DNA of 64,000 bases. Source: an uncultured Bacteroidota bacterium. GTDB taxonomy: Bacteria > Bacteroidota > Bacteroidia > JABEUT01. Below are positions 1,417 to 50,176 of the stretch, piece after piece. Within the stretch, counting starts at the first letter, position 1. Each line of letters begins with the position of its first letter. The position numbers and the translations under genes were made by a program. Where the stretch lies: the NCBI GenBank assembly GCA_903916255.1, contig CAIWVW010000143.1, positions 12,589 to 76,588 on the forward strand. Direction: 5' to 3'. The notes under the pieces were generated by a model, which saw nothing but the letters and a program-made list of their open reading frames with translations, did not search any database and had not been told where the DNA came from.

Positions 1417-1473
1417 GGTTTGTTTCTGCTGCCAAAATTAACAATTGCCACTATATGGCTGACCTTTTTAAAA

Positions 1474-19795: not shown

Positions 19796-19809
19796 GTCTT
19801 TAAGCCCCT

Positions 19810-20946: not shown

Positions 20947-20951
20947 ACAAA

Positions 20952-32071: not shown

Positions 32072-32082
32072 ATGTCCGCGCT

Positions 32083-32586: not shown

Positions 32587-32674
32587 TTTCCTTAATTTTT
32601 GCCAAAGGTAAAAAACAAGGGGGAAATAAAGGCTAAAAGAGGGTTTAAAATTGAGAATTAAGGGCTAATATTCC

Positions 32675-33811
32675 TTACGGTTCAGTTTTAACCGCCTCAA
32701 ACCGGTTTTTAAGCCTGAGGAATGGGCTTTCAAAGAAGCGGAACGAAATAACTGAAACTATAATGGTGAATCCAAAAGTCAGCAGGAAATAGACTATATT
32801 CATGTATATGCCCGATAGGTCGTGGCCAAATATTTTTTCGGTAAGGGTGAGGCATAAAATCCTGAATATGGCGCCATATAAATACATTCCATAGGATATT
32901 TTACCCAGGTAATTCATCCATTTATAATTAAGCCTTAAAATAGATTTGGGATTAGCCGCAAGGTTAATAATAACGAAACAGAACAACACCGAATAAAACT
33001 CAAATTCAATGTAGGGAATTCGGACATTCAAGCATACAAGCAAAAGTATAAGCATATAAACAGCCCACTGAATATCGCGCCTGAACAGGAAAGGAAGGAT
33101 TTTCTTTTTATCGGAAACCACCAGCGAAGCACCTATGCCGCCTATAGCCATACAACTTAACCGGTAGAAAGAAATTATTTTTTGAAAATGCCTGAACCAA
33201 GGAGAAAGGTGCAGTACCCGGCACATCACAAAGTAACCGTTGCGGAACAATATCACTGCTACTGTAATAATTATAAATAGTTGTATATATTTTTTGGTTC
33301 TTTTTAATATTAACGGTTCAAAAATATAGAACACCTCCTCTACCCTCACCGACCAGGTAGCTCCTATTGCACGCATTTTCATTCCATAGGGTGGCAAAAA
33401 GAGTATACACAGAATAAAGTCGAAATATTTATAGGGCGAATCAAGCTGCAATTCATCAATCCCCCATAATCTCCCTAAGTATGGAAACAGGAAAAAACCC
33501 AACAGGATAATAAGGAAATAGAGCGGCCATATCCTTAAACACCTGCGGGTATAATATTTCCGGATGTTAATGTTGCCTGTATCTTCTTTTTCCTTCAGCA
33601 ATAAATAACCTATAAGGAAACCGCTTAATACAAAAAATAATGAAACATCCACTCCGCCAAGGGGCAGGTAGTGTTTCACCCAGGCAATCGGCTCCTTTCC
33701 GCTGGTCACCTTCAATTCTTCCATATGAAGGACAAGGATAATAAATGAACCAACAAACCTCAGCCCATCGAGGTTTGGGAAATGCACTTTGCCTTTTACC
33801 GGTTCATTCAT
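32675..33811 (-). CDS. Membrane O-acyltransferase, acyltransferase family 3 (OafA/NolL-like). Cluster paralog 1.
   Basis: 378 aa, about 10 TM. N-terminal NLDGLRFVGSFIILVLH matches the acyltransferase-3 signature. Paralogous to 41696..42865. Confidence 0.8.
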   Translation of the reverse strand: MNEPVKGKVHFPNLDGLRFVGSFIILVLHMEELKVTSGKEPIAWVKHYLPLGGVDVSLFFVLSGFLIGYLLLKEKEDTGNINIRKYYTRRCLRIWPLYFLIILLGFFLFPYLGRLWGIDELQLDSPYKYFDFILCILFLPPYGMKMRAIGATWSVRVEEVFYIFEPLILKRTKKYIQLFIIITVAVILFRNGYFVMCRVLHLSPWFRHFQKIISFYRLSCMAIGGIGASLVVSDKKKILPFLFRRDIQWAVYMLILLLVCLNVRIPYIEFEFYSVLFCFVIINLAANPKSILRLNYKWMNYLGKISYGMYLYGAIFRILCLTLTEKIFGHDLSGIYMNIVYFLLTFGFTIIVSVISFRFFESPFLRLKNRFEAVKTEP

Positions 33812-33839
33812 ACCTTGACAAAACTACTAAAAACAGTAA

Positions 33840-34931
33840 ATGCAAGCCGAAGAAGTGAATATGAATATATTTGTCGCGTTATTTTCAATAATGCAACCAA
33901 GCAAACCTATTTCGGCGGAAGAAATAAAAAAGATTGGCTCCATACCTATGAACTTTGTGGTAGGTAAGGAACGTTCAGGCACTACCCTATTGCAGGTAAT
34001 GTTGAATACACACCCTAACATTATTGCTCCGCCTGAAACAAGGTTCCTCATGCTGCTTTCATCACGTTACGGCAAAGTAAAAAAATGGACCGAGCCTATA
34101 ATAACGAATTTCTGCAATGACCTTTTCCGGGAGAAATTATTTTCTAACTTCTGGAAAGTGAATAAAGAAGAATTGCGCAGGTATTGTATGGCAGCAAAGG
34201 ATTTTATAACCTATCCGCTTATATGCAAAATAGTTTTTTACCTTGAAAATCCGCAAAAAACGGTTCAGTTATTTTTTGATAAAAATCCTATTTATTATTA
34301 TTTTCTGCCGGAGCTGAATGAACTGTTTCCTGAAGCAAAATATATCCACATTGTACGTGATTACAGGGCAAATATTGTGAGCCACCGCCATGTATTTACC
34401 ATTAAACAAAGCGCCGATATTTCTTTCAGATGGACCAAAGTGAACCAGCTTATTGAAAAAGCCAAAAGCATATATCCGCAAAAATTCTTCACGCTGAAAT
34501 ATGAAGCGCTGGTGAGTGATACCGCCAATAGTCTGCAAGAAGTTTGTACTTTTTTAGGAGTGCCTTTTGAAGAAAAAATGGCTGCGGAACATACTTCCGG
34601 CATTTACGATACATTCAATTCTAACATAAAAGAAGGATTCCGTAAAATTCATGGCAATGTTTTCAAGCCGATCACTTCATCCTATGTGGATGAATGGAGA
34701 ACAACGCTTACCCCGGAAGATATTTATACGGCTGAAAGCGTAGCAGGAAAATATGCCGAAAAAATGTATGATTACGAAATGACCATGCCTGAAAAATCAG
34801 CATCCATAGGCTCTTCGGTCACTACTAAAATGAAATTGAAATACTTTATAATCCGGAAAATATACCGGGTAGCATTGAAAAATCCCTGGCTTTATTTTAA
34901 AATTCGGACCTATGTCTGGAGGTCGTTTTAG
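33840..34931 (+). CDS. PAPS-dependent sulfotransferase (Sulfotransfer_3-like). Cluster paralog 1.
   Basis: 363 aa. 5'-phosphosulfate-binding loop GKERSGTTLL. 3'-phosphate motif HIVRDYRANIVS. Paralogous to 40510..41679. Confidence 0.75.
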   Translation: MQAEEVNMNIFVALFSIMQPSKPISAEEIKKIGSIPMNFVVGKERSGTTLLQVMLNTHPNIIAPPETRFLMLLSSRYGKVKKWTEPIITNFCNDLFREKLFSNFWKVNKEELRRYCMAAKDFITYPLICKIVFYLENPQKTVQLFFDKNPIYYYFLPELNELFPEAKYIHIVRDYRANIVSHRHVFTIKQSADISFRWTKVNQLIEKAKSIYPQKFFTLKYEALVSDTANSLQEVCTFLGVPFEEKMAAEHTSGIYDTFNSNIKEGFRKIHGNVFKPITSSYVDEWRTTLTPEDIYTAESVAGKYAEKMYDYEMTMPEKSASIGSSVTTKMKLKYFIIRKIYRVALKNPWLYFKIRTYVWRSF

Positions 34932-35686
34932 CCAATCCTGAAAAGGTTATATACCGGTTTCATCACATAAATTACACCCAAAATAAAACCAAATAAAATG
35001 GTTTTTACAAACACGGGCATTTTGGCAATCACATTAATTTTATGATACAGATATGAAACATGCCTTGTGAGTATAAAAGCGCAAACTAAATTCTTTTGCT
35101 TTAAAAATTCGGGCCTGATAAAATCCATAATAATAACGATGCGCCGCTTGTCCGTATCGTTCCAGGCACCATGTTTGTATGCATCATTAAATATTATCCA
35201 CTTGCCTTCTTCCCAGTTTTTCTTTTCAGCATTCACAATAAGCCCGCAATCGGGGAGCTTACCGGGTATTTCAACGCCAAGATGGCAACGGAGCATCGCG
35301 TTGGTATCTCCGGTATGTTCCGCTAATGTAGAATGTGGCGCCAATTGACTGATTGAAAGTGAAACATAACCGGGAACTTGCTTTAGGTAAGCAGCCGTTT
35401 TAGGACACTTCTTTTTAAATTCATTGGAAAGTTTCAGGCCCCAAAAAAGGAAGACAATAACACTCCATCCATTATTAATATCGATGTTTTCATATACGGC
35501 CTTATTAGAAAGGAATTTACTATCCTTTTCCTTTACAAAAGAGGCAACCTCCCCTTTCAGTTCATCCCACTGATTTTCTATTTCAACAAGTGGTTGATAG
35601 TGCTTAGTATCGTAGAACCAAGGCTCATTTCCGGGATAGGGGCGCATGCTGGATGCATACCAAATATGGTTCTTATTCTCCGGCAT
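34928..35686 (-). CDS. Aspartyl/asparaginyl beta-hydroxylase-family Fe(II)/2OG oxygenase (LpxO/OlsC-like) with C-terminal membrane anchor
   Basis: 252 aa. HSTLAEHTGDTNAMLRCHLGVEIP...WEEGKWIIFNDAYKHGAWNDTDKRRIVIIMDF matches the Asp_Arg_Hydrox pattern. Hydrophobic C-terminal helix. Overlaps the sulfotransferase stop by 4 bp on the opposite strand. Confidence 0.65.
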   Translation of the reverse strand: MPENKNHIWYASSMRPYPGNEPWFYDTKHYQPLVEIENQWDELKGEVASFVKEKDSKFLSNKAVYENIDINNGWSVIVFLFWGLKLSNEFKKKCPKTAAYLKQVPGYVSLSISQLAPHSTLAEHTGDTNAMLRCHLGVEIPGKLPDCGLIVNAEKKNWEEGKWIIFNDAYKHGAWNDTDKRRIVIIMDFIRPEFLKQKNLVCAFILTRHVSYLYHKINVIAKMPVFVKTILFGFILGVIYVMKPVYNLFRIG

Positions 35687-35692
35687 ATGTTT

Positions 35693-36787
35693 TTATGCAG
35701 GATTCGGTTTAGCTTTCAGTACTTGCTCTTTTTCCGATTTTTCTTTCATGTAATTTTTCAGCTCGCCTGCTTCAGCCAGGTGAATGAGATTACTGTCTTT
35801 TTTGAGCAGTTTATAATACTTCCAGATAGGTGGATGGAAAGCGCACATATCCAAAAACATATAAAAAGGAGTCAGCTTTAAAGCGTATAACGGCGCGGCC
35901 CAGCGATAGCCCATACCAATGGCATCGGTCGGGTTTTTAATAGCATGCCAGTAGTGAGGGGGATTCCAAAGAATATCACCCGGTTTCAGGTCAGCTGAAT
36001 ATCCGTCGATATATTTATACAATTCATACGGAGGGCTGTAATCAGGGGCAAAGGGGTCGAATGGCAAACCGTTCTTACGGTTAGGAGCATTGCGGTAAAT
36101 ATTCCGAACCGGATTCGGGTCAATAACCATGGTATAATACTGGGGGTATAAAATCCAATTCTTTTCTCCCCACACCTGTATGAAAAGATTTGGCGGATTA
36201 GCATTGTGCAGAAAAGAGCCACCTCCCTTACCACCAATGAAAACCTGAAAACAATCGAAAAAAGAAAACTTGTTTATTTTATCATGCAGCCATTTATAAT
36301 CCACGTCCTTAATATGCTCGGGATGCTTATCCAGCAAAGGATAAAAACGAAAATATTTCCCGCCACCAGCCTGTATATTCTCAATAACTTCGCGCAAGGT
36401 GCTGGCTTCATAATTTTTCATATTTTCCTGTGTAGCCATAAGGGCCTCATCATCTCCATGAAGTTCCTTGAAATAATCCAGCGACCATTTTTTCACACAA
36501 TCCCAATCTTTGGCTGCGCCATCAAAAATTACCGGAATGCCTTTCTTTACATAATAATTCAGGAACTCTTCTTTGGTTAAATCAGAACGCCTTTCCATCG
36601 GAATAATTTTTCCTTCGCCGCTTGCTTTAAGGGTTTTTGTAAGGTTCTGATAAAATCTCCTCCTGCGTTTGCCAAGCACTTTGAAAACCCTGTCTCTGCC
36701 GAAAAAATGGTCCATAAACTGGTAAAACCCATATTCCAGCCGCTGACTTGCTTTAATGTTTCTTCTGAATGGAGTTGCTCTACTCAT
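35693..36787 (-). CDS. Cupin_8/JmjC-like oxygenase homologue, paralog P1. Metal motif HNA...H, with the carboxylate replaced by Ala.
   Basis: 364 aa. Cupin_8-type N-terminus (KKGIPVIFDGAAKDWDCVKKWSLDYFKELHGDDE). The codons cac-aat-gct (H-N-A) were read directly as the complement of 36200-36208. Distal His in YWHAIKN. Lys-rich C-terminal tail. Confidence 0.7.
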   Translation of the reverse strand: MSRATPFRRNIKASQRLEYGFYQFMDHFFGRDRVFKVLGKRRRRFYQNLTKTLKASGEGKIIPMERRSDLTKEEFLNYYVKKGIPVIFDGAAKDWDCVKKWSLDYFKELHGDDEALMATQENMKNYEASTLREVIENIQAGGGKYFRFYPLLDKHPEHIKDVDYKWLHDKINKFSFFDCFQVFIGGKGGGSFLHNANPPNLFIQVWGEKNWILYPQYYTMVIDPNPVRNIYRNAPNRKNGLPFDPFAPDYSPPYELYKYIDGYSADLKPGDILWNPPHYWHAIKNPTDAIGMGYRWAAPLYALKLTPFYMFLDMCAFHPPIWKYYKLLKKDSNLIHLAEAGELKNYMKEKSEKEQVLKAKPNPA

Positions 36788-36806
36788 GATTTACTTTTAT
36801 AAAATA

Positions 36807-37895
36807 TTAAACAGAACTAACTTCTAAGTTTTTAATTTTTTGCTGTTTTTCCTGTTCTTCCTTTTCTTTCAGATAGCCGTCCAACTTGCCCGATTCGGCC
36901 AAGCGAACAAGGTTAGTATCTTCAATATATAATTTGGCCGATTTGAATATAGATGGGTTCCTCACGAACAAGTCCAGGAAGGCATACAGGGGCGCTAATT
37001 TCAACGCGTATGGATATGCTACCCAACGATATCCCACACTAATGGAATCAGTTGTATTTTCTACCGTGTGCCACGAAAAATTCGGGTTAAATAGAATATC
37101 ACCGGGTTTCAAGTCGGTTTCCAGCCAGTTGATATATTGGTATTCGGGATAGGTTTCAAAATCGGGCTTAAACGGATTAAAAAGTTCATTGCCTTTCACA
37201 GCAGGGCTTCGGTATAAGTGTTTTGCCGGGTCGGGATTAAGAACCATTGTATAATATTTCGGGTAAATAATCCATTTTTTTTCGCCATATACCTGAACAA
37301 AAAGATTGCACTGATTTTCCATATGAATAGGCGTAACCGAATTCATGCCGCCAATAAATACTTGCCATGCCTCAAACCATGTGTAAGGGTTTCTGCGCTC
37401 CAGCAGCCATTTGTAATCGAAATCTTTAATGTGCTCGGGGTGCCTGAACAGCAATGGATAGAAACGGTAATACTTTCCGCCACCCGAACGGATATTATCG
37501 ATTACTTCGCCCAGCGTAGTTGTTTCATAAAGTTCCTTTAGCTTATGGTTGGTAAGCGCAATTACGTCATTCCCGTGAAGTTCTTTAAAATATTCGGGAG
37601 ACCATTTCTTTACACAATCCCAATCATTGGCAGCGCCTTCCATAACAACAGGAATTCCTTTGGCCCGATAGTGGTTTTTAAATTCTTCCAGGCTCAGGTT
37701 TTTTCTTCGTTCCACCTGTATTGCATTTCCGCGGCCATTTTTTATCAAGTCGGCCATTAATTTTTCACGGGCGGCTTTCCGGCGTTTTCCCAAAATCATG
37801 TTTACCCTGCCTTTACCCAAAAACTGGTCGAGAAACTGAAAGACTCCGTATTCGAAGCTTTTAGGCGTAATAATATTTTTTTTAGGGTCAATCAT
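36807..37895 (-). CDS. Cupin_8/JmjC-like Fe(II)/2OG oxygenase, paralog P2. Canonical HxE...H.
   Basis: 362 aa. The PIHMENQCNLF codons were confirmed in the DNA (about 37318-37340). Distal His in SWHTVEN. Lys-rich tail. Confidence 0.7.
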   Translation of the reverse strand: MIDPKKNIITPKSFEYGVFQFLDQFLGKGRVNMILGKRRKAAREKLMADLIKNGRGNAIQVERRKNLSLEEFKNHYRAKGIPVVMEGAANDWDCVKKWSPEYFKELHGNDVIALTNHKLKELYETTTLGEVIDNIRSGGGKYYRFYPLLFRHPEHIKDFDYKWLLERRNPYTWFEAWQVFIGGMNSVTPIHMENQCNLFVQVYGEKKWIIYPKYYTMVLNPDPAKHLYRSPAVKGNELFNPFKPDFETYPEYQYINWLETDLKPGDILFNPNFSWHTVENTTDSISVGYRWVAYPYALKLAPLYAFLDLFVRNPSIFKSAKLYIEDTNLVRLAESGKLDGYLKEKEEQEKQQKIKNLEVSSV

Positions 37896-37903
37896 TACTT
37901 CCG

Positions 37904-38995
37904 CTATTTCATCGTTTCGGTTACCTTCACTTTAGGAATTACTATACGTCCTTCAGACTCTTTGCGGTATTTATCCAGTTTGCCCCGCTGGGCAATTAAA
38001 AGCACATTAATATCCTCTTTAAACAATTTAATAACCTTCCAAATGGGGGGTTTGGTTGAAACAAAATCGAGGAACATATAAAGCGGAGCGGTTCTAAACC
38101 CTACAAAAAGATTGAACCAGCGATAGCCCACACCTATCGAATTGCTGGTATTTACAACAGTATGCCAATAGAAGGTTGGGACCCACAATACATCGCCGGG
38201 TTTTAAAATAGTTTCGTAATGGTCGATATACTTGTATAATTCATAAGGTGCATCGTACTTGGGATTGAACGGATTAAATCCGCCACGCTCGGGTGTTACC
38301 TGCACGCTGCGGTAAGCAAAACGCACAGGCTTCGGGTCAAGTATAGAAGTATAATAGGGTGGGTATAAAATCCATTTCTTTTCACCGTAAGTTTGAACGA
38401 ATAAATTGCCGCGGTTTTCAATATGCAGGCCTGTTGTCGTATCCTTTCCGCCCATCATTACGCGGAACTCTTCTATCAGGGTATTTTTATTTCTTCTTTC
38501 GCGAAGCCAGCCGTAGTCAAAATCCTTTATATGTTCAGGATGCCTGCTAAGTAATGGATAAAAACGGTAATATTTTTTTCCGCCACCCTGAATATTATCC
38601 ATGATATCGGCAAGGGTCATTATTTCAAAGTTCTTTTTGTCTTTATCGTCCAGCATGGCCACTTCATCGGTTCCATGCAAATCTTTAAAATACTCGAAAG
38701 ACCATTTCTTTACACAATCCCAATCATTGGCAGCCCCTTCCATAATAACAGGGATGCCCTTTTTAAGGTAATTCTTACGAAAATCTTTTAATGAGAGGTC
38801 AGTCCTGCGTTCTATTTCAATAGCCTTTCCATCACCACTCTTTCGGAGTGTTTCTTGCAGCCGCTTATAGAAATTCTTTCTGCGACCACCTAAAAGCTTA
38901 ACCATACGTTCACGACCAAAGAATTGGTCAAGGACCTGATAAACGCCATATTCGAATCGCTGGCCAGGCTTAATATTTCTTTTGTAGGTTTCCAC
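37904..38995 (-). CDS. Cupin_8/JmjC-like Fe(II)/2OG oxygenase, paralog P3. Canonical HxE...H.
   Basis: 363 aa. GLHIENRGNLF. YWHTVVN. Confidence 0.7.
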   Translation of the reverse strand: METYKRNIKPGQRFEYGVYQVLDQFFGRERMVKLLGGRRKNFYKRLQETLRKSGDGKAIEIERRTDLSLKDFRKNYLKKGIPVIMEGAANDWDCVKKWSFEYFKDLHGTDEVAMLDDKDKKNFEIMTLADIMDNIQGGGKKYYRFYPLLSRHPEHIKDFDYGWLRERRNKNTLIEEFRVMMGGKDTTTGLHIENRGNLFVQTYGEKKWILYPPYYTSILDPKPVRFAYRSVQVTPERGGFNPFNPKYDAPYELYKYIDHYETILKPGDVLWVPTFYWHTVVNTSNSIGVGYRWFNLFVGFRTAPLYMFLDFVSTKPPIWKVIKLFKEDINVLLIAQRGKLDKYRKESEGRIVIPKVKVTETMK

Positions 38996-39132
38996 TATCC
39001 TTGCCCTGTTTTACCTGCAAATATAGGAATTATTGGGTTTAGAGCCATCTGCTTACGGTGTAAGTTGATTATTTTATAGTTTTACCGACAATAAGCAGGA
39101 AAGTTAAATATTTCAAGGGTTTTGAAACAAAA

Positions 39133-40464
39133 ATGAGGTTTTTAGCAAATATTATTTCGAAATTCTTCAAAAGCGAGGAAGACCGGAAAAGATTGTATAA
39201 AATAGTTATACCATCTTTCATCATACACTTTTTCGCAGCCATACTCGCACTTACCTTTATGTTCATAATGACGCGGAGCCTTGGTTCAAAGCGTTATGGG
39301 CTGTTTACATATTCTTTCAGCATTGTTTTTATCATTGTTAATCTTGCCACCTATGGTATTTGCGTATTGGCCGTAAGGGAAACCCCTTCTTTACTGGCCA
39401 AAGGTAAAAAGGCACTTTGGAAAGGGTTGCACAAATGGTCGGTTAAGTTATTGGTGCTGATTTCCATGGCATTTGCGTTAGCAGTTGCCACTTTTATCAC
39501 AATTTCAACATTTTACCTGCATATTCTGAAAGAAACAGCCTATACCATCCCCTTGCTTTTGGCATTGTTAACTGTACCGTTTTATGGGTTAATGAATTAC
39601 TATGCTTCTATCCTTCGCGGACAGCAAAAAATTGTGCTTTCCTTATTGCCCGACAATATTGTAAAACCGGTTATTTTCCTGTCATCCATCGGGTTAATAT
39701 ATGCCATTACCCGGAAATTTACGCTGCCCGATGCTATCTTAATGAATGCCCTGTCGTTTGCCGGAGCAGCCGTTTTCGCCATGGTAGTATTTTATAAAAC
39801 CACCCTGCTGAAAGATACCGTTGCAGAATATGATAAACCACATTGGAGAAACTCCCTGAAACCTTTCTTTTTGTTTATGATTATAACCAGCATCAATTCA
39901 CGGATGGATATTCTTATGCTGGGTTTTTTAAAGGAATCTTCGCAGGTTGGTATTTACAGCGTGGCGGATATGATAGGCTCAAAGGTGACTTTATTTTTAC
40001 TGATAATGAACCAGGTTACAGCAGCCTCCATAGCCCGGATGCACAGCATGGATGAAAAAGAGAAGTTGCAAGACTTGGTTACCAAAACCAGCCGCTGGGT
40101 ATTTATCATTACTTTGCCAGTATTCCTTTTTATTGTAGTTTTCCGCAAATGGATAATGGCCTACTTTGGCGCTGATTTCGACAGCGGGCAAACAGCTTTG
40201 CTTATTATAGCCAGCGGACAAATAATTAATATCGCGTTCGGGCCGGTGGGCAATTTTGCTTTGATGACGGGCAATCAGCGGTATCCTATTATTTTCACTT
40301 CCATTAATATCGTTATTAATCTAACCCTGAATCTTATTCTTACCCCTACGTTGGGTATAAACGGAACAGCCATTGCAACAACTTGTGCCATAGTTACATG
40401 GAACACCGGTATGTTTTTAACCATACGCAAGAAAACGGGTATTCGCACCTGGATTTTCGGATAG
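39133..40464 (+). CDS. MOP-superfamily flippase (Wzx/polysaccharide-biosynthesis-protein-like, 12-14 TM)
   Basis: 443 aa, entirely polytopic. Its length and topology fit Wzx/MATE-like exporters. Confidence 0.55.
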   Translation: MRFLANIISKFFKSEEDRKRLYKIVIPSFIIHFFAAILALTFMFIMTRSLGSKRYGLFTYSFSIVFIIVNLATYGICVLAVRETPSLLAKGKKALWKGLHKWSVKLLVLISMAFALAVATFITISTFYLHILKETAYTIPLLLALLTVPFYGLMNYYASILRGQQKIVLSLLPDNIVKPVIFLSSIGLIYAITRKFTLPDAILMNALSFAGAAVFAMVVFYKTTLLKDTVAEYDKPHWRNSLKPFFLFMIITSINSRMDILMLGFLKESSQVGIYSVADMIGSKVTLFLLIMNQVTAASIARMHSMDEKEKLQDLVTKTSRWVFIITLPVFLFIVVFRKWIMAYFGADFDSGQTALLIIASGQIINIAFGPVGNFALMTGNQRYPIIFTSINIVINLTLNLILTPTLGINGTAIATTCAIVTWNTGMFLTIRKKTGIRTWIFG

Positions 40465-40509
40465 TAAATTTGCGGGATGCAATTTGCGGAACTGATTCCG
40501 GTGTAACAA

Positions 40510-41679: not shown

Positions 41680-41695
41680 AAAAATACTCCTTGTT

Positions 41696-42865: not shown

Positions 42866-43091
42866 AAAAGATTAAAGAGTTTACAGGTAAATGCAAAAGC
42901 AATTTAACTTTTAGACTCTGTCTTCTTCTGAATGTAGCTTGGCTTTCACGATGTTTAATGTTTTTTTAACCCGATATTAATTTAGTTTTAATTCGGTTTT
43001 AATTCCAATTTAATAACACACCCTTCTTGTTTGGCAATAGAGTATTATTCCACCATTACTAGAAAATTTATGTGTAAAACCCCGATACTAA

Positions 43092-44183
43092 TTATACCGC
43101 GGCCTTCACTTCAACCTTTTTCAGCTTATCCCGTTCCGCTTTTTCTTTGAGGTAATTATCCAACTGGCCCGATTCTGCCAAGTGTACAAGGTTGTTATCC
43201 TTTTTCAAAAGCTTCCACGATTTCCATATGGGCGGATGAATAGCCAGCATATCGAGCAGCATATATAATGGCGCTATTTTAAAAGCATAAAACGGGTCTG
43301 TCCAGCGGTATCCAACACCAATAGAATCGGAAGCATTTTTTACCGTATGCCAGTAAAACGGAGGATTCCAAAGTATGTCTCCCGGTTGAAGGCTTACGGA
43401 ATAGCCATCTATATATTTATACAACTCATTCGGCGGGCTATAATCCGGGCTGAACGGGTCGAAAGGCATATTATTTTTCCCTCTGAAAGGAGCGTTCCTA
43501 TATACATTTCGAACCGGGTCGGGGTCAACAATCATCGTATAATATTGAGAAATCAAAATCCAGTCTTTTTGCCCGTAAGTCTGAACAAAAAAGTTAGGCG
43601 GATTGGCATTATGAACATAAGAAATGCTGTCTTTCGGCCCGATAAAAACCTGAAATGCTTCAAATAGTGAAAACTTGGTCTTCCTGTCAAGCAACCATTG
43701 GTAATCAAAATCCTTAAGATGTTCAGGATGTCTGTCTAATAAAGGATAAAACCTGTAATATTTCTTCCCACCTCCTTTAATATTATCAATAACCTCCCTC
43801 AACGTAATTGCTTCGTAGTTATTCATGTTTTCCTGCGTTGCCATTACTATTTCATCATCGCCATGCAATTCTTTAAAATAATCAAGCGACCATTTCTTTA
43901 CGCAATCCCAATCTTTGGCGGCCCCTTCCAGCACCACAGGGATTCCTTTCCGCATGTAATGGTTCTTGAACTCTTTGAGGCTGATATCTTTTCTTCTTTC
44001 TATAGGATATATTTTACCCTCTCCGCTTTTCTTAAGGGTTTCCAGTAAGTTTCTGTAGAATTTTTTCCGGCGCTTGCCAAGCATTTTAAAAGTTCTTTCC
44101 CTTCCCAGAAAATGGTCGAGAAACTGGTAAATGCCATATTCAAAACGTTGGCTGTTTTTTATATTTCTTCTGAAGTCACTCAT
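43092..44183 (-). CDS. Cupin_8/JmjC-like oxygenase homologue, paralog P4. Motif HNA...H.
   Basis: 363 aa. YVHNANPPNFF. YWHTVKN. Closest to P1. Confidence 0.7.
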   Translation of the reverse strand: MSDFRRNIKNSQRFEYGIYQFLDHFLGRERTFKMLGKRRKKFYRNLLETLKKSGEGKIYPIERRKDISLKEFKNHYMRKGIPVVLEGAAKDWDCVKKWSLDYFKELHGDDEIVMATQENMNNYEAITLREVIDNIKGGGKKYYRFYPLLDRHPEHLKDFDYQWLLDRKTKFSLFEAFQVFIGPKDSISYVHNANPPNFFVQTYGQKDWILISQYYTMIVDPDPVRNVYRNAPFRGKNNMPFDPFSPDYSPPNELYKYIDGYSVSLQPGDILWNPPFYWHTVKNASDSIGVGYRWTDPFYAFKIAPLYMLLDMLAIHPPIWKSWKLLKKDNNLVHLAESGQLDNYLKEKAERDKLKKVEVKAAV

Positions 44184-44201
44184 TTTACTGCAATTTTAAA
44201 T

Positions 44202-45308
44202 TTACACTGCGGCTTTAGCTTTCAAGGTTTTTTCCTGCTTTTTAGCTTCATCTCTTTCGGCTTTCTTTTTCAAATAATCTTCCAACTGCCCTGTTTCGGC
44301 AAGATAAATTAAGTTGGCATCCTTGCGAACCATTTCACTACCCTTCCATATGGGAGGATTCCTTGCGCAGAAATCGAGCAACATATAAAGAGGGGCTATC
44401 TTTAAAGAATATAACGGAGGAATCCAGCGGAAACTTACGCCAATTGAATCAGTCGGGTTTTGCACACAATGCCAGTAATACGGCGGCAACCATAACACAT
44501 CACCCGGCCTTACTGTAGCTTCAAGGGTATCGATGTATTTGAAGAGTTCATATGGCCTTTCATAGTTGCCCGGCTTAAACGGGTCGAACGGGCCCTTATC
44601 CGTACGCATAGGTGCATGGCGGTAAACATTCTTAACCGGGTCGGGGTCCAAAACCATAGTATAATAGGGTGGATATAAAATCCATTTCTTTTCCCCATAT
44701 ACCTGTAAAAACATATTGCAGGAACAGGCATTATGCAAGCCCGTTGCGGTTCCCGCGCCGCCCATAAATACCTGGAATGCTTCGAACCAGTTGATACGGT
44801 TTTTGTGCTTCAGAAGCCAGTTATAATCAAACTCCTTAATATGCTCCGGATGCCTATCCAACAAAGGATAGAAGCGATAATACTTCCCCCCCCCCGAACG
44901 CATATTATCTATTACCTCCCCAAGCGTAATTGTTTCATAAGGATATCCTTCCTTTTGGAGTTGGACGAGCAAAATTTCATCATCGCCATGTAATTCTTTA
45001 AAATATTCAAATGACCAATCTTTTACACAGGCCCAATCTTTGGCAATACCTTCCATAACCACCGGAATACCCTTTCTTAAGTAATGGTCGCGGAATTCCT
45101 TTATACTTAAATCTTTACGTCTTTCTATTTGAACTGCCTTGCCGGGACCGCTTTGTTTAAGGGTTTCCGTCAGATTTTTATAGAACTTTCTGCGTCGGGT
45201 ACCGAATAACTTAAACATCCGCTGACGCCCAAAAAAATGGTCAAGAATTTGGTAAACACCATATTCCAACCGCTGGCTCCGCTTAATATTTCTTTTATAG
45301 TCACTCAT
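44202..45308 (-). CDS. Cupin_8/JmjC-like oxygenase homologue, paralog P5. Motif HNA...H.
   Basis: 368 aa. GLHNACSCNMF. YWHCVQN. Lys-rich tail. Confidence 0.7.
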   Translation of the reverse strand: MSDYKRNIKRSQRLEYGVYQILDHFFGRQRMFKLFGTRRRKFYKNLTETLKQSGPGKAVQIERRKDLSIKEFRDHYLRKGIPVVMEGIAKDWACVKDWSFEYFKELHGDDEILLVQLQKEGYPYETITLGEVIDNMRSGGGKYYRFYPLLDRHPEHIKEFDYNWLLKHKNRINWFEAFQVFMGGAGTATGLHNACSCNMFLQVYGEKKWILYPPYYTMVLDPDPVKNVYRHAPMRTDKGPFDPFKPGNYERPYELFKYIDTLEATVRPGDVLWLPPYYWHCVQNPTDSIGVSFRWIPPLYSLKIAPLYMLLDFCARNPPIWKGSEMVRKDANLIYLAETGQLEDYLKKKAERDEAKKQEKTLKAKAAV

Positions 45309-45403
45309 TATACTTCACTAAATAAACACAAATATATGGTAATTATTGCGAAAATACTGTGAGTTTCCATTTCAATATTGCATAAAGCTTTCGCAGAAAG
45401 TAT

Positions 45404-45411
45404 TAACTTTG
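45404..45411 (+). promoter_or_regulatory. Candidate Bacteroidota sigma-A -7 element (TAACTTTG matches TAnnTTTG) upstream of the FabH-ACP-FabH-SDR-GT2 operon. TTG at 45378-45380 could be the -33 element.
   Basis: The motif lies 19 bp upstream of the GTG start at 45430, in a 120-bp intergenic gap. Confidence 0.3.
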
Positions 45412-45429
45412 TGAAAATTACGATAAAGA

Positions 45430-46434
45430 GTGGGTGCTTTCATTAAAGCTATAAGCTATTATTTGCCTGAAAAAATTCTGAATAATGAAGAATTGTCACG
45501 CATATTCCCCGAATATACTCCCGAAGAGATTTTCAGGCGCACAGGCGTGAAAGAAAGGCGAATAGCTGCTGACGATGAAATACCCTCTGATTCAGCAGTT
45601 ACAGCTACGGCCAAATTCTTTGAAGAACATCCGCATGTTAAGAAAGAAGATATAGATTTTCTTATTTTCACCACTGAAATGGTTGACAGGCGCGGCCCGG
45701 CAACAGCTTGCATTTTGCAAAATAAACTAGGGCTGCCAACTACCCTTGGAGCTATTGATATTCCTATGGGTTGTTCGGGTTTTATTTATGGATTAATGGT
45801 AGCTAATTCCCTTATTACAACAAAAGTCGCAAAAAATATATTATTTCTGACTGGAGATGCGGCTACGAAAGTAATCCACCCGAGAGACCATGAATTACGG
45901 ATGATTTTTGGCGATGCAATGGCAGTAACGCTTATCAGCGAAACTGAAAACAGCGGTATTGGGGGTTTTGTTTATGGCACCGATGGCTCCGGAGCTCCTA
46001 ATTTAATTGTGGAAGGATGTTGCGGAGCCGAGAAACCTACCCGCGAATGGCTTGATAAATATAGTGATGCAGGAGGAATGGCTTACGGCATATTTAGCAT
46101 GAAAGGGCCTGAAGTTTTAACTTTCTCATTACGCAAAGTACCACCCTTGGTAAAAGAAACGCTTGAAAAAGCTAACTTAACCATGGACGATATTGACCTT
46201 TTTGTATTCCATCAGGCAAGCGGATTTATCTTAGAGGTGTTGAGAAGGAAAATGAAAATTCCGAAAGAGAAATTTTTTACTAATCTTGAATTTATTGGTA
46301 ACACCGTAGCTGCAACAATTCCATTAGCTTTGTACGATGCGGTGAAAGAAGGCCGAGCAAAAAAAGGCGATAAGGTTTTGATTGCAGGATTCGGGATTGG
46401 CTATTCCTGGGGAGCAACAGTTATAACAATTTGA
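45430..46434 (+). CDS. FabH-family 3-oxoacyl-ACP synthase III-like condensing enzyme (copy 1), GTG start
   Basis: 334 aa. Cys-His-Asn triad in the contexts GCSGFIYG, FHQASG and GNTVAATIPLAL. Confidence 0.8.
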   Translation: MGAFIKAISYYLPEKILNNEELSRIFPEYTPEEIFRRTGVKERRIAADDEIPSDSAVTATAKFFEEHPHVKKEDIDFLIFTTEMVDRRGPATACILQNKLGLPTTLGAIDIPMGCSGFIYGLMVANSLITTKVAKNILFLTGDAATKVIHPRDHELRMIFGDAMAVTLISETENSGIGGFVYGTDGSGAPNLIVEGCCGAEKPTREWLDKYSDAGGMAYGIFSMKGPEVLTFSLRKVPPLVKETLEKANLTMDDIDLFVFHQASGFILEVLRRKMKIPKEKFFTNLEFIGNTVAATIPLALYDAVKEGRAKKGDKVLIAGFGIGYSWGATVITI

Positions 46435-46447
46435 TAATTTTAATTAT

Positions 46448-46690
46448 ATGGATATAAATACATTTATACAACAATTACAGGGAGAGTTTGAAGATATTCC
46501 TGCAGGCTTCCTGAAACCGGAAACAAAAATCAGCGATATTGAAGGCTGGGGCTCTATGCACGCCCTTATTGTTATTGCGCTTATAGATACCGAATATGGC
46601 GTTACCCTTAAAGGCGATGAGTTGAGAAAAGTATCTTCTGTACAAGAGCTTTATGATATGGTTGTCAATCTGAAAAATAATCCGGAATAA
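46448..46690 (+). CDS. Acyl carrier protein (discrete, cluster-associated)
   Basis: 80 aa. IEGWGSMHAL, with Ser at the phosphopantetheine-attachment position of the DSL-type motif. Confidence 0.75.
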   Translation: MDINTFIQQLQGEFEDIPAGFLKPETKISDIEGWGSMHALIVIALIDTEYGVTLKGDELRKVSSVQELYDMVVNLKNNPE

Positions 46691-46695
46691 AAGAA

Positions 46696-47751
46696 ATGGC
46701 TTCCTTTTCAATAAATAACGTAAGCATTAAAGGTATTGCAGGAGCTGTACCGAAAGAGGAATTATCCAATTGGGATTATACCCATATTACCGAACAAGAA
46801 AGGAAACTCCTGATTAAAACTACCGGTGTTGAAAAGCGCAGGATGGTTGGGAAATCTGGAATTACTACAACTGATTTATGCAAAGCAGCCGCTGAAAAAC
46901 TACTGGAAGCAACTAACACTTCCAAAGACGATATTCAGATTTTAATTTTTGTTTCCCAAACGCCCGATTACTTTCTGCCCGCCAGCAGCATAACATTGCA
47001 AAACAGGCTTGGCTTGCCCAAAACCTGCATGGCATTCGATATTAATTTAGGTTGCTCCGGATATGTATATGGACTGTCAGCTATATCATCATTAATAAGC
47101 GTAGGTAAATTCAAAAAAGCCCTTTTATTGTGCGGTGATATTTCTTCTGCCGGCCCTCCGGAGGAAGATAAAAGCGTATTCCCGCTTTTTGGAGATGGCG
47201 GCACTGCAACCCTTTTAGAATACGATGAAACCGCCGCTACCATGCATTTCAGCAACCAGAGTGACGGTTCAGGATATGAAGCCATAATAGTAAGGGAAGG
47301 TGGTATGCGCAAACCATTTACGGTGGATTCATTCACGATGGTGGAAAAGGAAAAAGGCATTTCCCGCGCCAGCCGCAATTTGGAATTAAACGGAATGGCG
47401 GTATTTAATTTTTCAGTTACAGAGGTACCTAAAAATATTGCGGAGTTCTTCAGCACGACCAATACAGGTCCTGATTCCTATGATTATTTTGTAATGCACC
47501 AGGCCAATTTACTGATGAATGAAACCATCCGGAAGAAAATGAAATTCCCTCCGGAAAAAGTGCCTTATACATTGCCTAAATTTGGCAACACCAGTTCTGC
47601 CTCCATACCACTAACAATAGTTTCCGAACTGCATGATAAAGTTGCAGGGGAAGTATCATGGCTGCTTTCAGGGTTTGGTGTTGGCTTATCATGGGCAACA
47701 GTTTCGCTGAAAACAAAAGATTTGATTTGCCCTGAAATTGTAGAATTATAG
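46696..47751 (+). CDS. FabH-family KAS III-like condensing enzyme (copy 2)
   Basis: 351 aa. GCSGYVYG, MHQANLLM and GNTSSASIPL triad contexts. Confidence 0.8.
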   Translation: MASFSINNVSIKGIAGAVPKEELSNWDYTHITEQERKLLIKTTGVEKRRMVGKSGITTTDLCKAAAEKLLEATNTSKDDIQILIFVSQTPDYFLPASSITLQNRLGLPKTCMAFDINLGCSGYVYGLSAISSLISVGKFKKALLLCGDISSAGPPEEDKSVFPLFGDGGTATLLEYDETAATMHFSNQSDGSGYEAIIVREGGMRKPFTVDSFTMVEKEKGISRASRNLELNGMAVFNFSVTEVPKNIAEFFSTTNTGPDSYDYFVMHQANLLMNETIRKKMKFPPEKVPYTLPKFGNTSSASIPLTIVSELHDKVAGEVSWLLSGFGVGLSWATVSLKTKDLICPEIVEL

Positions 47752-47756
47752 AAAAT

Positions 47757-48506
47757 ATGTCTACCCCTTTTCATCTTCATAATAAAACGGTACTTGTAAC
47801 GGGGGCCTCTTCCGGCATCGGAAAACAAGTTGCTATTTCTTGCAGCGCTATGGGCGCAAAAGTGGTAATTACGGGAAGGGACGAAAAACGGTTAGCGGAA
47901 ACATTTTCAGTATTGCAAGGTGAAGGACATTCCCAATTTGTTTGCGATTTGATGGATGAAACCCAACGCAATAATTTATTCGATACCATTCCTGCAATTG
48001 ACGGATATGTGCATTCGGCGGGAGTTGTAGCACCAGTTCCGGTGAAGTTTATTGCCGAAAAACATATACGTTACATTATGGGTGTAAATTTTGAATCGGC
48101 AGTGCTTTCAGTTGCGCGTTTACTAAAAAATAAAAAGTTGAACGATGCCGCCTCCTTAGTATTTTTTTCATCCATATCTGTAAGCTATCCCTATGCGGGA
48201 GGAGCTTTATACACAGCATCCAAAGGGGCAATAGAAGCCTACAGCAAAAATTTAGCGATTGAAATTCTCCCCAAGAAAATGCGCAGCAATGTGGTTGTTC
48301 CCGCAATGGTTAAAACGCCCTTGTACGAAGAAACTAAAAACCAATCGATGTACCGAAGCGCGGAAGAATATGAAAGTAAATATCCACTTGGATTAGGCAT
48401 GCCGGAAGATGTGGCGAATGCCTGCATCTATTTATTATCCGAAGCATCCAGATGGGTAACAGGCATTAATCTTACGCTGGACGGAGGCTTCAGCATTGTT
48501 AAATAG
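47757..48506 (+). CDS. Short-chain dehydrogenase/reductase (FabG-like 3-oxoacyl-ACP reductase)
   Basis: 249 aa. TGASSGIG cofactor motif. YTASKGAIEAY is the YxxxK active site. Confidence 0.8.
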   Translation: MSTPFHLHNKTVLVTGASSGIGKQVAISCSAMGAKVVITGRDEKRLAETFSVLQGEGHSQFVCDLMDETQRNNLFDTIPAIDGYVHSAGVVAPVPVKFIAEKHIRYIMGVNFESAVLSVARLLKNKKLNDAASLVFFSSISVSYPYAGGALYTASKGAIEAYSKNLAIEILPKKMRSNVVVPAMVKTPLYEETKNQSMYRSAEEYESKYPLGLGMPEDVANACIYLLSEASRWVTGINLTLDGGFSIVK

Positions 48507-49434
48507 AATGGGCGGAACAATCAAAGATATTTCAATAGTAGTTCCGGTATTTAATGCCGCTCCGGCACTTATTGCCCTACAGGCTGAAATAGATAAAGTA
48601 ATGGCCCTGGAAGGGATTACATACAAACTTATTTTGGTAGATGACGGCTCGGAAGATAAAAGTTGGGAAGTTATCAGGGCCATAAAAAACAATCATCCGG
48701 AAAAGGTTACTGCCATCCGGATGTCGAAAAACTACGGACAGCACAATGCCATTTTTGTTGGATTCCGCAATGCCAAAAGTAATTATATAATTACTATCGA
48801 TGATGACCTGCAGCATCCGCCCGATGAAATACCGCGACTAATTAAATGCGCCGAAGAAACAGATGCAGATTTAGTTTATGGTATATCAGGCGCATACAAA
48901 AGGTCGTTACTGCGCAAGTTTTTGCGATGGGGGTTTCGCCTTTTAAACCGCATGACAGCCGATGATAAAGAGGGTTCCGCTTTCCGCATTATAAAAAAAG
49001 GATTGGTAGATAAACTGGTAACGCACGACCAGGAATTTGTCTTTATAGATGAGCTCGCAAATTGGTACACCGAAAAAATAGAGTATATAAAAGTGCGTCA
49101 CGATAAATCACATGTAGATAAATCGCGTTATCCTTTTTCACGCTTAAGCAAGCTTTATTACAATCTTGTATTTGGCTACAATGCTTTCCTGTTAAGGTTA
49201 ATCACATTTTTAGGATGTACCTCATCCGCCATTTCCATCCTTATCGGGGTTTTCTTTATTATCAAAAAAATATTTTTCCATGTGCAGGTTGGTTTCACCG
49301 GCATTGTAGTAAGCATTACCTTCACCGGTGGTGTTATTTTATTAAGTATCGGCATCATTGGTGAATATATGCGCCGCATGTATAATATTATGAATGCCAA
49401 ACCGCAATCTTCTGTCAGCGAAATATTAGAGTAG
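48496..49434 (+). CDS. GT2 polyprenyl-phosphate glycosyltransferase (DPM1/GtrB/ArnC-like) with two C-terminal TM helices
   Basis: 312 aa. ISIVVPVFNA...LVDDGSEDKS...TIDDDLQHPP. C-terminal hydrophobic hairpin. Overlaps the SDR gene by 11 bp. Confidence 0.8.
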   Translation: MLNRMGGTIKDISIVVPVFNAAPALIALQAEIDKVMALEGITYKLILVDDGSEDKSWEVIRAIKNNHPEKVTAIRMSKNYGQHNAIFVGFRNAKSNYIITIDDDLQHPPDEIPRLIKCAEETDADLVYGISGAYKRSLLRKFLRWGFRLLNRMTADDKEGSAFRIIKKGLVDKLVTHDQEFVFIDELANWYTEKIEYIKVRHDKSHVDKSRYPFSRLSKLYYNLVFGYNAFLLRLITFLGCTSSAISILIGVFFIIKKIFFHVQVGFTGIVVSITFTGGVILLSIGIIGEYMRRMYNIMNAKPQSSVSEILE

Positions 49435-49436
49435 TT

Positions 49437-50129
49437 ATGATAGTTCGCAAATACGGAATTACGCTCCGGAGGCTAAAAGAAGAAGATATTGAACTATTGC
49501 GTGAAAAACGTAATTCGACAGCCATACAAAACACCATGTTTTACCGCGAGCATATCACTCCCGAAATGCAAAAAAAATGGTTTGATTCCATCAACAATAA
49601 GAATAACGGCTATTTTATTATTGAGTTTGAAGGCAAAAAAATAGGGCTTATTCACGGAAAAGATATAGACTTTGAAAAACGAACATGCGAGGGCGGAATT
49701 TTCATCTGGGATGAAAGCTACATTGGCGGATTTATCCCTTCACTGGCTTCGGTAATGATGAATGACTGGACCTTTTACATGATTAATTTCAAAGCAATTT
49801 ATGCCAAAATAATGCTGGATAATACTATTGCTATCAACTACAATAAATTGATGGGCTATCAGCTTTGCGAGCCACAAAATGAGGACAAAGGAGTGCAATG
49901 GATGATACTTACAAAAGAACGCTACGAAAAACACATGAAACTCTTACGCAAAGCTATAAAGGAGATTACCGGCGACGGTGAAATTCTGAAGTTGGAAGAT
50001 GGCGATGCATCAGACGATTTGGGCAAAGAAATAGACCTTTTTTATAAAGGGCTACCGCCCGATATACAGGAAAGGGGGGATACTTTGTTGCGCTGGGCTT
50101 ATGAAAAGAAGCTAAGAGGTAAGAACTAA
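49437..50129 (+). CDS. GNAT-like N-acyltransferase domain protein with an acidic C-terminal extension
   Basis: 230 aa, GNAT-like N-terminal half. Starts 2 bp after the GT2 stop. Confidence 0.4.
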   Translation: MIVRKYGITLRRLKEEDIELLREKRNSTAIQNTMFYREHITPEMQKKWFDSINNKNNGYFIIEFEGKKIGLIHGKDIDFEKRTCEGGIFIWDESYIGGFIPSLASVMMNDWTFYMINFKAIYAKIMLDNTIAINYNKLMGYQLCEPQNEDKGVQWMILTKERYEKHMKLLRKAIKEITGDGEILKLEDGDASDDLGKEIDLFYKGLPPDIQERGDTLLRWAYEKKLRGKN

Positions 50130-50176
50130 GAGCTCTTATTTCTTAGCTAATTACTACATTTGCAGTTTAACGACAA

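Follow-up and report, generated by a model that had tools for sequence, protein, structure and literature searches.

In the O-polysaccharide locus of Flavobacterium psychrophilum, the genes wfpC (ketosynthase, KS), wfpD (acyl carrier protein, ACP), wfpE (KS), wfpF (ketoreductase, KR) and wfpG (N-acyltransferase) were proposed by Cisar et al. to make 3,5-dihydroxyhexanoyl-ACP and to acylate UDP-Qui2NAc4NH2, and the dihydroxyhexanoyl amide (on Qui2NAc4N) of this polysaccharide was established by nuclear magnetic resonance (PMC6519341). According to Kipouros and Chang, every reported radical halogenase dependent on iron and 2-oxoglutarate (Fe/2OG) has a 2-His-1-Ala or 2-His-1-Gly metal site, these enzymes are scattered among hydroxylase relatives, and the halogenase atlas contains 70 unexplored predicted halogenase clusters (PMC13489965). 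Bacterial neighborhoods of dioxygenases and sulfotransferases have been noted in general terms by Iyer et al. (PMC2938197), while the genes and marine producers of the chlorosulfolipids were still unknown in a 2026 survey (PMC13413282). Here we describe a locus of 17 genes at positions 32675-50129 of a 64,000-nucleotide stretch, called the window throughout, from an uncultured Bacteroidota bacterium (GenBank assembly GCA_903916255.1, contig CAIWVW010000143.1). It is a real, conserved cluster in which each enzyme family is known. No description of the combination was found in the literature searched, in agreement with an earlier note, made from the sequence alone, that could match it to no described pathway.

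The open reading frames (ORFs) of the locus are as follows. The ratios of nonsynonymous to synonymous substitution rates (dN/dS) given for the cupins were computed with closer loci, dS being saturated against the orthologues of the related locus L004.

32675-33811, minus strand: AT3a, membrane O-acyltransferase of the acyltransferase-3 (AT3) type (Acyl_transf_3 6e-23), no SGNH domain, at least 6 hydrophobic segments; clade accessory
33840-34931, plus strand: STa, sulfotransferase (ST; Sulfotransfer_3 2.6e-30), ERSGTTL at residue 44, HIVRDYR at residue 170, basic aromatic C-terminal tail
34928-35686, minus strand: AAH, Asp/Asn-beta-hydroxylase family (Asp_Arg_Hydrox, Pfam 3e-37), OlsC/LpxO-like, transmembrane-like segment 217-249
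35693-36787, minus strand: CupA1, Cupin_8/JmjC protein, H194-N-A196 at 36200-36208, H281, 2OG-binding Lys209; candidate radical halogenase; dN/dS 0.010
36807-37895, minus strand: CupE1, Cupin_8/JmjC protein, canonical triad H191-M-E193 at 37317-37325 and H276; hydroxylase-type; dN/dS 0.027
37904-38995, minus strand: CupE2, Cupin_8/JmjC protein, canonical triad H191-I-E193 at 38417-38425 and H278; hydroxylase-type; heads the CupE2-CupE1-CupA1-AAH unit
39133-40464, plus strand: Wzx-like flippase/exporter of the multidrug/oligosaccharidyl-lipid/polysaccharide (MOP) type (Polysacc_synt 8e-16, MatE 8e-9), at least 8 hydrophobic segments; clade accessory
40510-41679, plus strand: STb, sulfotransferase (Sulfotransfer_3 3.3e-33), ERSGTSL at residue 56, HIIREPR at residue 183
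41696-42865, minus strand: AT3b, second membrane O-acyltransferase (Acyl_transf_3 1.5e-27)
43092-44183, minus strand: CupA2, Cupin_8/JmjC protein, H191-N-A193 at 43605-43613, H279; candidate radical halogenase; dN/dS 0.022
44202-45308, minus strand: CupA3, Cupin_8/JmjC protein, H192-N-A194 at 44727-44735, H280; candidate radical halogenase; heads the CupA3-CupA2(-AT3b) unit; dN/dS 0.019
45430-46434, plus strand: FabH1, KAS III (Pfam and NCBIfam beta-ketoacyl-ACP synthase III, 3e-76), Cys-His-Asn triad; first gene of the six-gene cassette
46448-46690, plus strand: dedicated ACP of 80 amino acids (aa), Ser36 at 46553-46555 in a W-[SGD]-S-M motif
46696-47751, plus strand: FabH2, second KAS III, intact Cys-His-Asn triad
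47757-48506, plus strand: short-chain dehydrogenase/reductase (SDR), FabG-like ketoreductase (adh_short_C2 1e-42, KR domain)
48496-49434, plus strand: GT2, ArnC/GtrB-type polyprenyl-phosphate glycosyltransferase, DDDLQH at 48799-48816 (residue 102)
49437-50129, plus strand: GNAT, PseH/SpeG-like N-acyltransferase (Pfam Acetyltransf_3) with a C-terminal extension of about 85 aa; last gene of the cassette

Comparison with described systems

The six-gene cassette has its closest likeness in the Wfp set, which comes from the same phylum and shows the same order and domain types, KS-ACP-KS-KR followed by an N-acyltransferase. The acyl module hence has a precedent in the gene order of wfpC-G (PMC6519341). 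The two sets differ in that the window cassette has an ArnC-type GT2 intercalated before the acyltransferase, and in that this acyltransferase is a PseH-like GNAT (PseH 4.5e-15; SpeG structures, i.e. spermidine N-acetyltransferases, 4e-9) where that of Wfp is a PglD homologue. Furthermore, Wfp is part of an O-antigen locus of the Wzx/Wzy type that also has several glycosyltransferases and genes for sugar nucleotides but lacks cupins, sulfotransferases and AAH, whereas the window locus has one GT2 and no Wzy.

With the Arn (PmrF/ArnC), Francisella Flm and Bordetella Lgm systems the locus shares an ArnC-type GT2 beside an N-acyltransferase and a flipping step, to which related loci add a DegT/ArnB-type aminotransferase and a GT-C-like membrane transferase. 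Homologues of ArnA, ArnD, ArnE/F and ArnT were not found at the locus; its acyl group would come from a private module resembling fatty acid synthase, and sulfation and radical tailoring have no Arn counterpart. The GT2 matches the NCBIfam ArnC profile over positions 4-311 of 316 (E 7e-50; PgfS 3e-34) and has two C-terminal transmembrane-like segments at residues 230-290, but with 170 bits it stays short of the equivalog cut-off (529) and so is not ArnC itself.

Known Fe/2OG radical halogenases (SyrB2, CurA Hal, WelO5, BesD, AspX and BtnX), some of which act on ACP-tethered acyl groups, have in common with CupA1, CupA2 and CupA3 a fold of the double-stranded beta-helix type, the 2-His-1-Ala/Gly site and the retained 2OG residues, whereas the window cupins lie in the JmjC/Cupin_8 branch (JMJD5/FIH-like). 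The solved structures nearest to STa are the OLS and CurM sulfotransferases (1.6e-14 and 1.4e-13), followed by TPST. CurM and OLS act on an acyl chain bound to ACP and sulfate its beta-hydroxyl, the group that the FabH/SDR module would supply, but a thioesterase (for decarboxylative elimination to an alkene) and polyketide synthase (PKS) modules are not present at the window locus. Chlorosulfolipids such as danicalipin and the mytilipins are similar in that chlorinations of unactivated carbons and sulfate esters on a hydroxylated alkyl chain are also predicted here; however, their known producers are eukaryotic (chrysophytes, marine plankton), their chains are C12-C27 and carry no sugar, and the link to the window genes is one of enzyme logic only.

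A number of described locus types were considered and rejected. The OlsC/LpxO acyl-chain 2-hydroxylases belong to the same Pfam family as AAH, which also has a C-terminal membrane anchor, and provide its best NCBIfam matches, although at 111 bits for OlsC (cut-off 450) and 81 bits for LpxO (cut-off 500) AAH is far below the equivalog cut-offs, and no OlsA/B-type or lipid A genes are nearby, which speaks against ornithine-lipid or lipid A hydroxylation. The defining gene of dialkylresorcinol/flexirubin loci, for a DarB/StlD-type ketosynthase, is missing (DarB 53 bits vs a cut-off of 550). Both results agree with the earlier note, which had set ornithine-lipid and flexirubin loci apart by their gene content. 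O-antigen and capsule loci are defined by an initiating phosphoglycosyltransferase, a Wzy polymerase, proteins for chain length or export, genes for sugar nucleotides and several glycosyltransferases; a classical Wzx/Wzy locus was rejected since just a Wzx-like gene and one GT2 occur among the 17 proteins, and Wzx is absent from 16 of the 18 relatives described below. Lastly, a cluster for ribosomally synthesized and post-translationally modified peptides, already judged unlikely, was rejected because the locus contains no precursor peptide, peptidase or ABC exporter.

Extent, organization and relatives of the locus

An ORF check placed all 17 ORFs at the positions that the earlier note had given them, and its list of domains was borne out by Pfam and NCBIfam annotation, with a Pfam match above the gathering score for 16 of the 17. 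The exception is the 80-aa ORF at 46448-46690. For this ACP no Pfam match was obtained in the window copy; by hhalign it aligns to Escherichia coli AcpP over 71 columns, with its Ser36 on the phosphopantetheine Ser36 (E 0.0018). The W-[SGD]-S-M motif is invariant in its 19 homologues, and two of these have weak PP-binding matches. The intergenic gaps are, in gene order, 28, -4, 6, 19, 8, 137, 45, 16, 226, 18, 121, 13, 5, 5, -11 and 2 bp. Twelve of the 16 are shorter than 30 bp, so that "mostly under 30 bp" was correct, while "several overlapping" was slightly generous for two gene pairs. The three larger gaps contain just chance ORFs of 17-23 aa and no credible precursor peptide. Neither the Pfam scan of the 17 locus proteins nor the gaps revealed a nonribosomal peptide synthetase or PKS, a peptidase or an ABC exporter, as had been claimed before, and Rfam and tRNA scans found nothing within the locus. 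Its base composition is the same as that of the rest of the window.

The locus is flanked by pyrR on one side and a fused E1 gene on the other, domain annotation having confirmed that these are pyrR and a keto-acid dehydrogenase E1 gene. In the related locus L084, a 376-aa gene, pyrR, E1, a 187-aa gene and a tetratricopeptide repeat (TPR) gene are contiguous except for a single RES-like insertion. The cluster is found there on the opposite side of pyrR, at an independent insertion site. This arrangement identifies pyrR and E1 as neighbors rather than members, and 32675-50129 as the correct extent. The inserted gene (L084 12911-13855), which encodes 314 aa with a faint RES-domain match, separates pyrR from E1 and so takes the place that the entire cluster has in the window. 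A role of E1 as supplier of primers for the FabH proteins was considered as well and rejected, since E1 has its own promoter-type motif and adjoins pyrR in L084.

TAnnTTTG is an established Bacteroidetes promoter element. In the window, where it occurs 0.5 times per kb per strand, it is found 15-23 nt upstream of CupE2, CupA3, FabH1, E1 and pyrR: as TATATTTG 23 nt upstream of CupE2 and 21 nt upstream of CupA3, and as TAACTTTG 19 nt upstream of FabH1. These positions fit three main putative transcription units, namely CupE2-CupE1-CupA1-AAH, CupA3-CupA2(-AT3b) and FabH1 through GNAT. Sigma-70 promoters and terminators, for which 32000-51000 was scanned, were no more frequent there than expected from shuffled sequence.

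By scanning genomes with an alignment of the cupins we obtained 77 loci, and the window proteins were mapped onto these and onto loci added later. The cupin family of the window was found in 57 loci, and FabH-ACP-FabH-SDR-GT2-GNAT, always in this fixed order and with the GNAT directly 3' of the GT2 in all relatives, in 18. Among these 18 full-cassette loci, 16 had sulfotransferases, 14 an OlsC/LpxO-like AAH and 13 a TPR protein resembling TMTC. AT3 and Wzx were each present in only two, both in the window's own clade. The flippase and the two O-acyltransferases, listed by the earlier note alongside the other genes, are clade accessories and not part of the core. The nearest relative is a soil metagenome-assembled genome (MAG), Bacteroidia bacterium SMAG_U12683 (98%). 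Among cultured bacteria, the cluster with cupins is carried by Haloflavibacter putidus PLHSN227, Mesonia aquimarina MCCC 1A11700 and Acidiluteibacter ferrifornacis S-15.

The TPR protein (L002 17207-19240, L003 1178-3715, L083 12073-14019, L088 6672-8561) is 630-850 aa long, with a polytopic N-terminal part containing a Y-x-x-D-D/E motif and a C-terminal TPR part. Its likeness to TMTC consists of weak TMTC_DUF1736 matches, a PDB search having returned TPR matches alone. A small predicted lipoprotein gene often adjoins it and could encode its acceptor. A DegT/ArnB-type aminotransferase stands beside the cassette in L048, L053, L088 and L089, two of these clusters being cupin-bearing. Of the cupin-less ones, L088 (Aequorivita sp. 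H23M31, CP034951.1) has the cassette, the TPR protein, two sulfotransferases and DegT, and L089, from a gammaproteobacterial MAG and thus outside Bacteroidota, has the cassette, DegT and one sulfotransferase.

The recurrence of this gene set in synteny across many genomes is far beyond chance, and a self-contained, vertically conserved biosynthetic unit of uncultured Bacteroidia is the best explanation for it. The survey of co-occurrence suggested in the earlier note thus found cupins, sulfotransferases and cassette recurring together, and the view of the 17 genes as one coherent biosynthetic or modification locus is upheld by the synteny in 18 loci and the independent insertion site in L084.

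The cupin array

The five cupins match Pfam Cupin_8 at 1e-21 to 7e-27 and are 50-69% identical to CupA1. In an alignment of CupE2 with human JMJD5, H191-I-E193 falls on the metal ligands H321-Q-D323 and the YWH segment on H400. The His-x-Asp/Glu...His facial triad is found in CupE1 and CupE2 and not in CupA1, CupA2 and CupA3, which have H-N-A in place of the metal-binding His-x-Asp of JMJD5, that is, a 2-His-1-Ala site. The second His, the 2OG-binding Lys (GEKKW), an Asn and a Y-x-R-F-Y segment are invariant in 51 members of the family, and all five cupins are under strong purifying selection (dN/dS 0.01-0.03). The earlier note had counted six 2OG oxygenases performing multiple C-H oxidations; the six genes are present, but with three of the five cupins being of the 2-His-1-Ala kind, only two cupins are hydroxylase-type.

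The AlphaFold model of CupA3 (pLDDT 93, pTM 0.90) has JMJD5 (TM-score 0.84 on the target), TYW5, FIH and JMJD7 as its top structural matches. No characterized halogenase was found among 40 PDB sequence matches or the top 50 Foldseek matches, all of which are JmjC hydroxylases, and the literature searched gave no precedent for a natural JmjC enzyme with a 2-His-1-Ala site. PDB entry 8a82 ("Cupin_8 domain-containing protein") might be the OocP halogenase, a suspicion for which a literature search returned nothing relevant. Since the 2-His-1-Ala/Gly site is universal among reported radical halogenases, the H-N-A site marks the CupA proteins, judged by sequence, as candidate radical halogenases on a JmjC scaffold.

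H-x-A or H-x-G is found in 102 of the 120 closest cupin homologues, and H-x-A in 78 of 119 locus-derived cupins, a few others having Ser, Gly or Asn, while all 21 distant outgroup Cupin_8 proteins have H-x-D. A profile search of 1.84 billion representatives gave 215 at 50% identity with E<=1e-30; the best 150 of these 215 comprise 93 with H-x-A, 19 with H-x-G and 26 with H-x-D/E. In a neighbor-joining tree the H-x-E proteins form one clade nested in the H-x-A family and confined to the lineage of the window (CupE1, CupE2 and the related loci L001, L004 and L040). The H-x-A/G state is ancestral in the family. Because of its nested and lineage-confined position, the H-x-E clade appears to have regained the metal-binding carboxylate, after which the gene was duplicated.

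The cupins are soluble and have a conserved, very basic N-terminal two-helix extension of 65 residues, 16-19 of which are Lys or Arg. Together with the basic aromatic tails of the sulfotransferases and the membrane helix of AAH, these extensions suggest that the enzymes act close to the membrane on its cytoplasmic side. SRPBCC proteins adjoin cupins in 7 clusters. In L087 (419-5415; Flavobacteriaceae MAG CAZRNW01), a His-x-Gly member of the wider cupin family is located amid two genes for fatty-acid desaturases, of which one has a cytochrome b5 fusion, a PhyH gene and an Asp_Arg_Hydrox gene; this looks like a separate lipid-tailoring locus. The desaturase context and the SRPBCC neighbors suggest a hydrophobic substrate for the cupins. 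In many genomes a polytopic membrane protein of about 540 aa adjoins a His-x-Ala cupin, including cupins far from any cassette (L002 6412-9986; L082 8298-9962; L010, L015, L017-L019, L022, L023, L025, L028, L030, L034, L037, L039, L050, L057 and L059). No Pfam or PDB match was obtained for this protein, and no homologue of it was found in the window.

Proposed pathway, alternatives and significance

By analogy, the cluster would follow the logic of Arn: an amino sugar, its N-acylation, transfer to polyprenyl phosphate, flipping and a GT-C-like transfer. We give an even chance to such a route yielding a polyprenyl-phosphate-linked N-acyl sugar that is sulfated, hydroxylated and probably also chlorinated. 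Gene content, synteny, the limits of the locus, active-site residues and purifying selection were observed, whereas we infer each chemical step, as well as the product, in the following way. FabH1, FabH2, the private ACP and the SDR would very probably assemble, on the ACP, a short acyl chain of the beta-hydroxy or 3,5-dihydroxy kind. The GNAT might then transfer it to the amino group of a nucleotide amino sugar that genes elsewhere in the genome would provide, the chances of this step being about balanced, and the ArnC-type GT2 would, with fair probability, attach the acyl-sugar to polyprenyl phosphate on the cytoplasmic side of the inner membrane. CupA1, CupA2 and CupA3 may replace unactivated C-H bonds with halide, CupE1 and CupE2 together with AAH would hydroxylate the molecule, the two sulfotransferases would in all likelihood esterify hydroxyls with sulfate, and the two AT3 enzymes would O-acylate it. 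Fe/2OG and PAPS (3'-phosphoadenosine-5'-phosphosulfate) chemistry need the cytoplasm, and this tailoring is therefore placed while the molecule is still cytoplasmic. The Wzx-like MOP protein would move the product across the membrane. In most relatives the TMTC-like TPR protein, a candidate GT-C transferase whose gene is absent from the window, would hand the unit to a periplasmic acceptor. Parts of this scheme had been anticipated: a dedicated acyl chain on its own ACP is supported by the FabH-ACP-FabH-SDR cassette, a polyprenyl-phosphate sugar by the ArnC-type GT2, and tailoring that includes PAPS sulfation by the PAPS motifs of both sulfotransferases, 5'-PSB-like ERSGT[TS]L and 3'-PB-like H[IV][IV]R[DE]xR. 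A further idea is tentative and less likely than not, namely that the widespread His-x-Ala/Gly JmjC proteins are an unrecognized fold-family of radical halogenases which, together with CurM-like sulfotransferases, makes polychlorinated, sulfated hydroxy-acyl groups on an envelope glycoconjugate of Bacteroidia, a chemistry of the chlorosulfolipid type.

Several observations weigh against the proposed route. Products of clusters of this type have yet to be observed, and the likeness to Wfp is one of gene order and domain types. PAPS-synthesis genes, a DegT sugar aminotransferase and the TPR/TMTC-like GT-C candidate were all searched for in the window and not found; their functions must be provided elsewhere in the genome, or be partly replaced by the clade-specific Wzx and AT3, and the window locus by itself probably does not encode the complete pathway. 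The normal cargo of MOP/Wzx flippases is an oligosaccharide on polyprenyl diphosphate rather than a sugar on the monophosphate. The sulfotransferase match to CurM/OLS (1e-14) is barely better than that to protein tyrosine sulfotransferases (4e-12), some cupins of the family occur away from any cassette, beside the 540-aa membrane protein, and the closest cupin structures are all protein or tRNA hydroxylases, none of them a halogenase. Nor is a 2-His site proof of halogenation: human AspH is a hydroxylase with two His ligands, and FIH keeps its hydroxylation activity in the D201G variant (structures of FIH D201A and D201G are present among the PDB entries). As such two-His hydroxylases exist, we regard halogenation by the CupA proteins, read from their sequences, as no more and no less probable than its opposite.

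The same pathway could accordingly run without halogen, the His-x-Ala cupins being two-His hydroxylases or other oxidants (desaturase, epoxidase) and the product a polyhydroxylated, sulfated, O-acylated acyl-sugar. This we consider possible but doubtful. Besides the hydroxylase structures and AspH-like precedents just mentioned, it draws on the many sulfotransferases and acyltransferases at the locus, which need hydroxyl groups, and on the source habitats, many of which are soil or fresh water with low chloride according to the MAG titles. The need for cupin-made hydroxyls is countered by the loci in which sulfotransferases accompany the cassette without any cupin, sulfation there being independent of the cupins. 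Moreover, the ancestral Ala/Gly is under strong purifying selection across hundreds of sequences, with Asp/Glu sporadic, and His-x-Ala and His-x-Glu paralogs coexist in one operon, which suggests different chemistry. Ala and Gly are also exactly the residues of the known halogenases (PMC13489965).

Two further alternatives change the substrate instead. The product might be a free membrane lipid, the GNAT N-acylating an amino acid or polyamine and the GT2 glycosylating the lipid before it is hydroxylated, halogenated and sulfated in the membrane. Ornithine and glycine lipids or N-acyl polyamines are precedents for such a GNAT, whose best solved relatives are spermidine N-acetyltransferases; OlsC and LpxO, which AAH resembles, act on acyl chains of membrane lipids, and the HxG cupin among desaturases, the lipid-binding SRPBCC neighbors and the lack of a sugar aminotransferase and GT-C in the window all point the same way. 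We nevertheless hold it unlikely, as the likeness of the GT2 to ArnC is full-length and takes in the C-terminal helices that typify polyprenyl-phosphate transferases, DegT aminotransferases and TMTC-like GT-C candidates recur as neighbors, OlsB/OlsA-type acyltransferases were not found in the locus, and the two-KS, one-KR module shares its gene order with the amino-sugar acylation set of Wfp. Very improbable is a protein or peptide that is hydroxylated or halogenated and then sulfated, with the GT2 and TMTC-like pair glycosylating the same protein and the acyl cassette serving separately. JMJD5, FIH and JMJD7 are indeed protein hydroxylases, the ST matches include tyrosine-protein sulfotransferases in second place, proteins are bound by TPR domains of the TMTC and OGT type, the gene for the small lipoprotein is a neighbor of the TPR protein in several clusters, and protein hydroxylation followed by sulfation was predicted by Iyer et al. 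for other bacterial dioxygenase/sulfotransferase neighborhoods (PMC2938197). Yet no conserved substrate-like ORF or precursor peptide was found at the window locus, cupins and sulfotransferases are linked most tightly to the acyl cassette, and cytoplasmic tailoring and periplasmic GT-C transfer are incompatible on the same folded protein in any simple order.

Outside the locus, a GT87-family glycosyltransferase (GT-C type, polyprenyl-phosphate-sugar dependent) adjoins an RmlD-like reductase at window 496-2640, about 30 kb away. Next to one another on the minus strand, at 19037-22475, are genes for a putative cyclase, a radical SAM protein and a histidine kinase. Three proteins (4171-6465, 15173-16279 and 55173-56849) have a type IX secretion C-terminal sorting domain, which fits a Bacteroidota chromosome; one of them is a Peptidase_C10 (streptopain-like) protease with an I69 inhibitor prodomain. 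The window also encodes a 750-aa protein with a glycine-rich domain match alone (6677-8929) and a 536-aa ORF with no Pfam match at E<=1e-4 (58111-59721).

If the CupA proteins halogenate, they would represent a new scaffold for a rare, biocatalytically prized enzyme class, and the His-x-Glu paralogs that share their operon would provide natural switch variants for studying what separates chlorination from hydroxylation. With the His-x-Ala/Gly JmjC enzymes there would then also be first concrete candidates for the type of catalyst behind chlorosulfolipids, and the cluster offers a hypothesis for that unsolved enzymology. Four cultured species make the predictions directly testable, three of which carry the cluster with cupins and one, Aequorivita sp. 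H23M31, the cassette without them. For the Bacteroidia themselves, in lineages of soil, freshwater and marine habitats, the cluster predicts an anionic, sulfated and possibly chlorinated component of the cell envelope.

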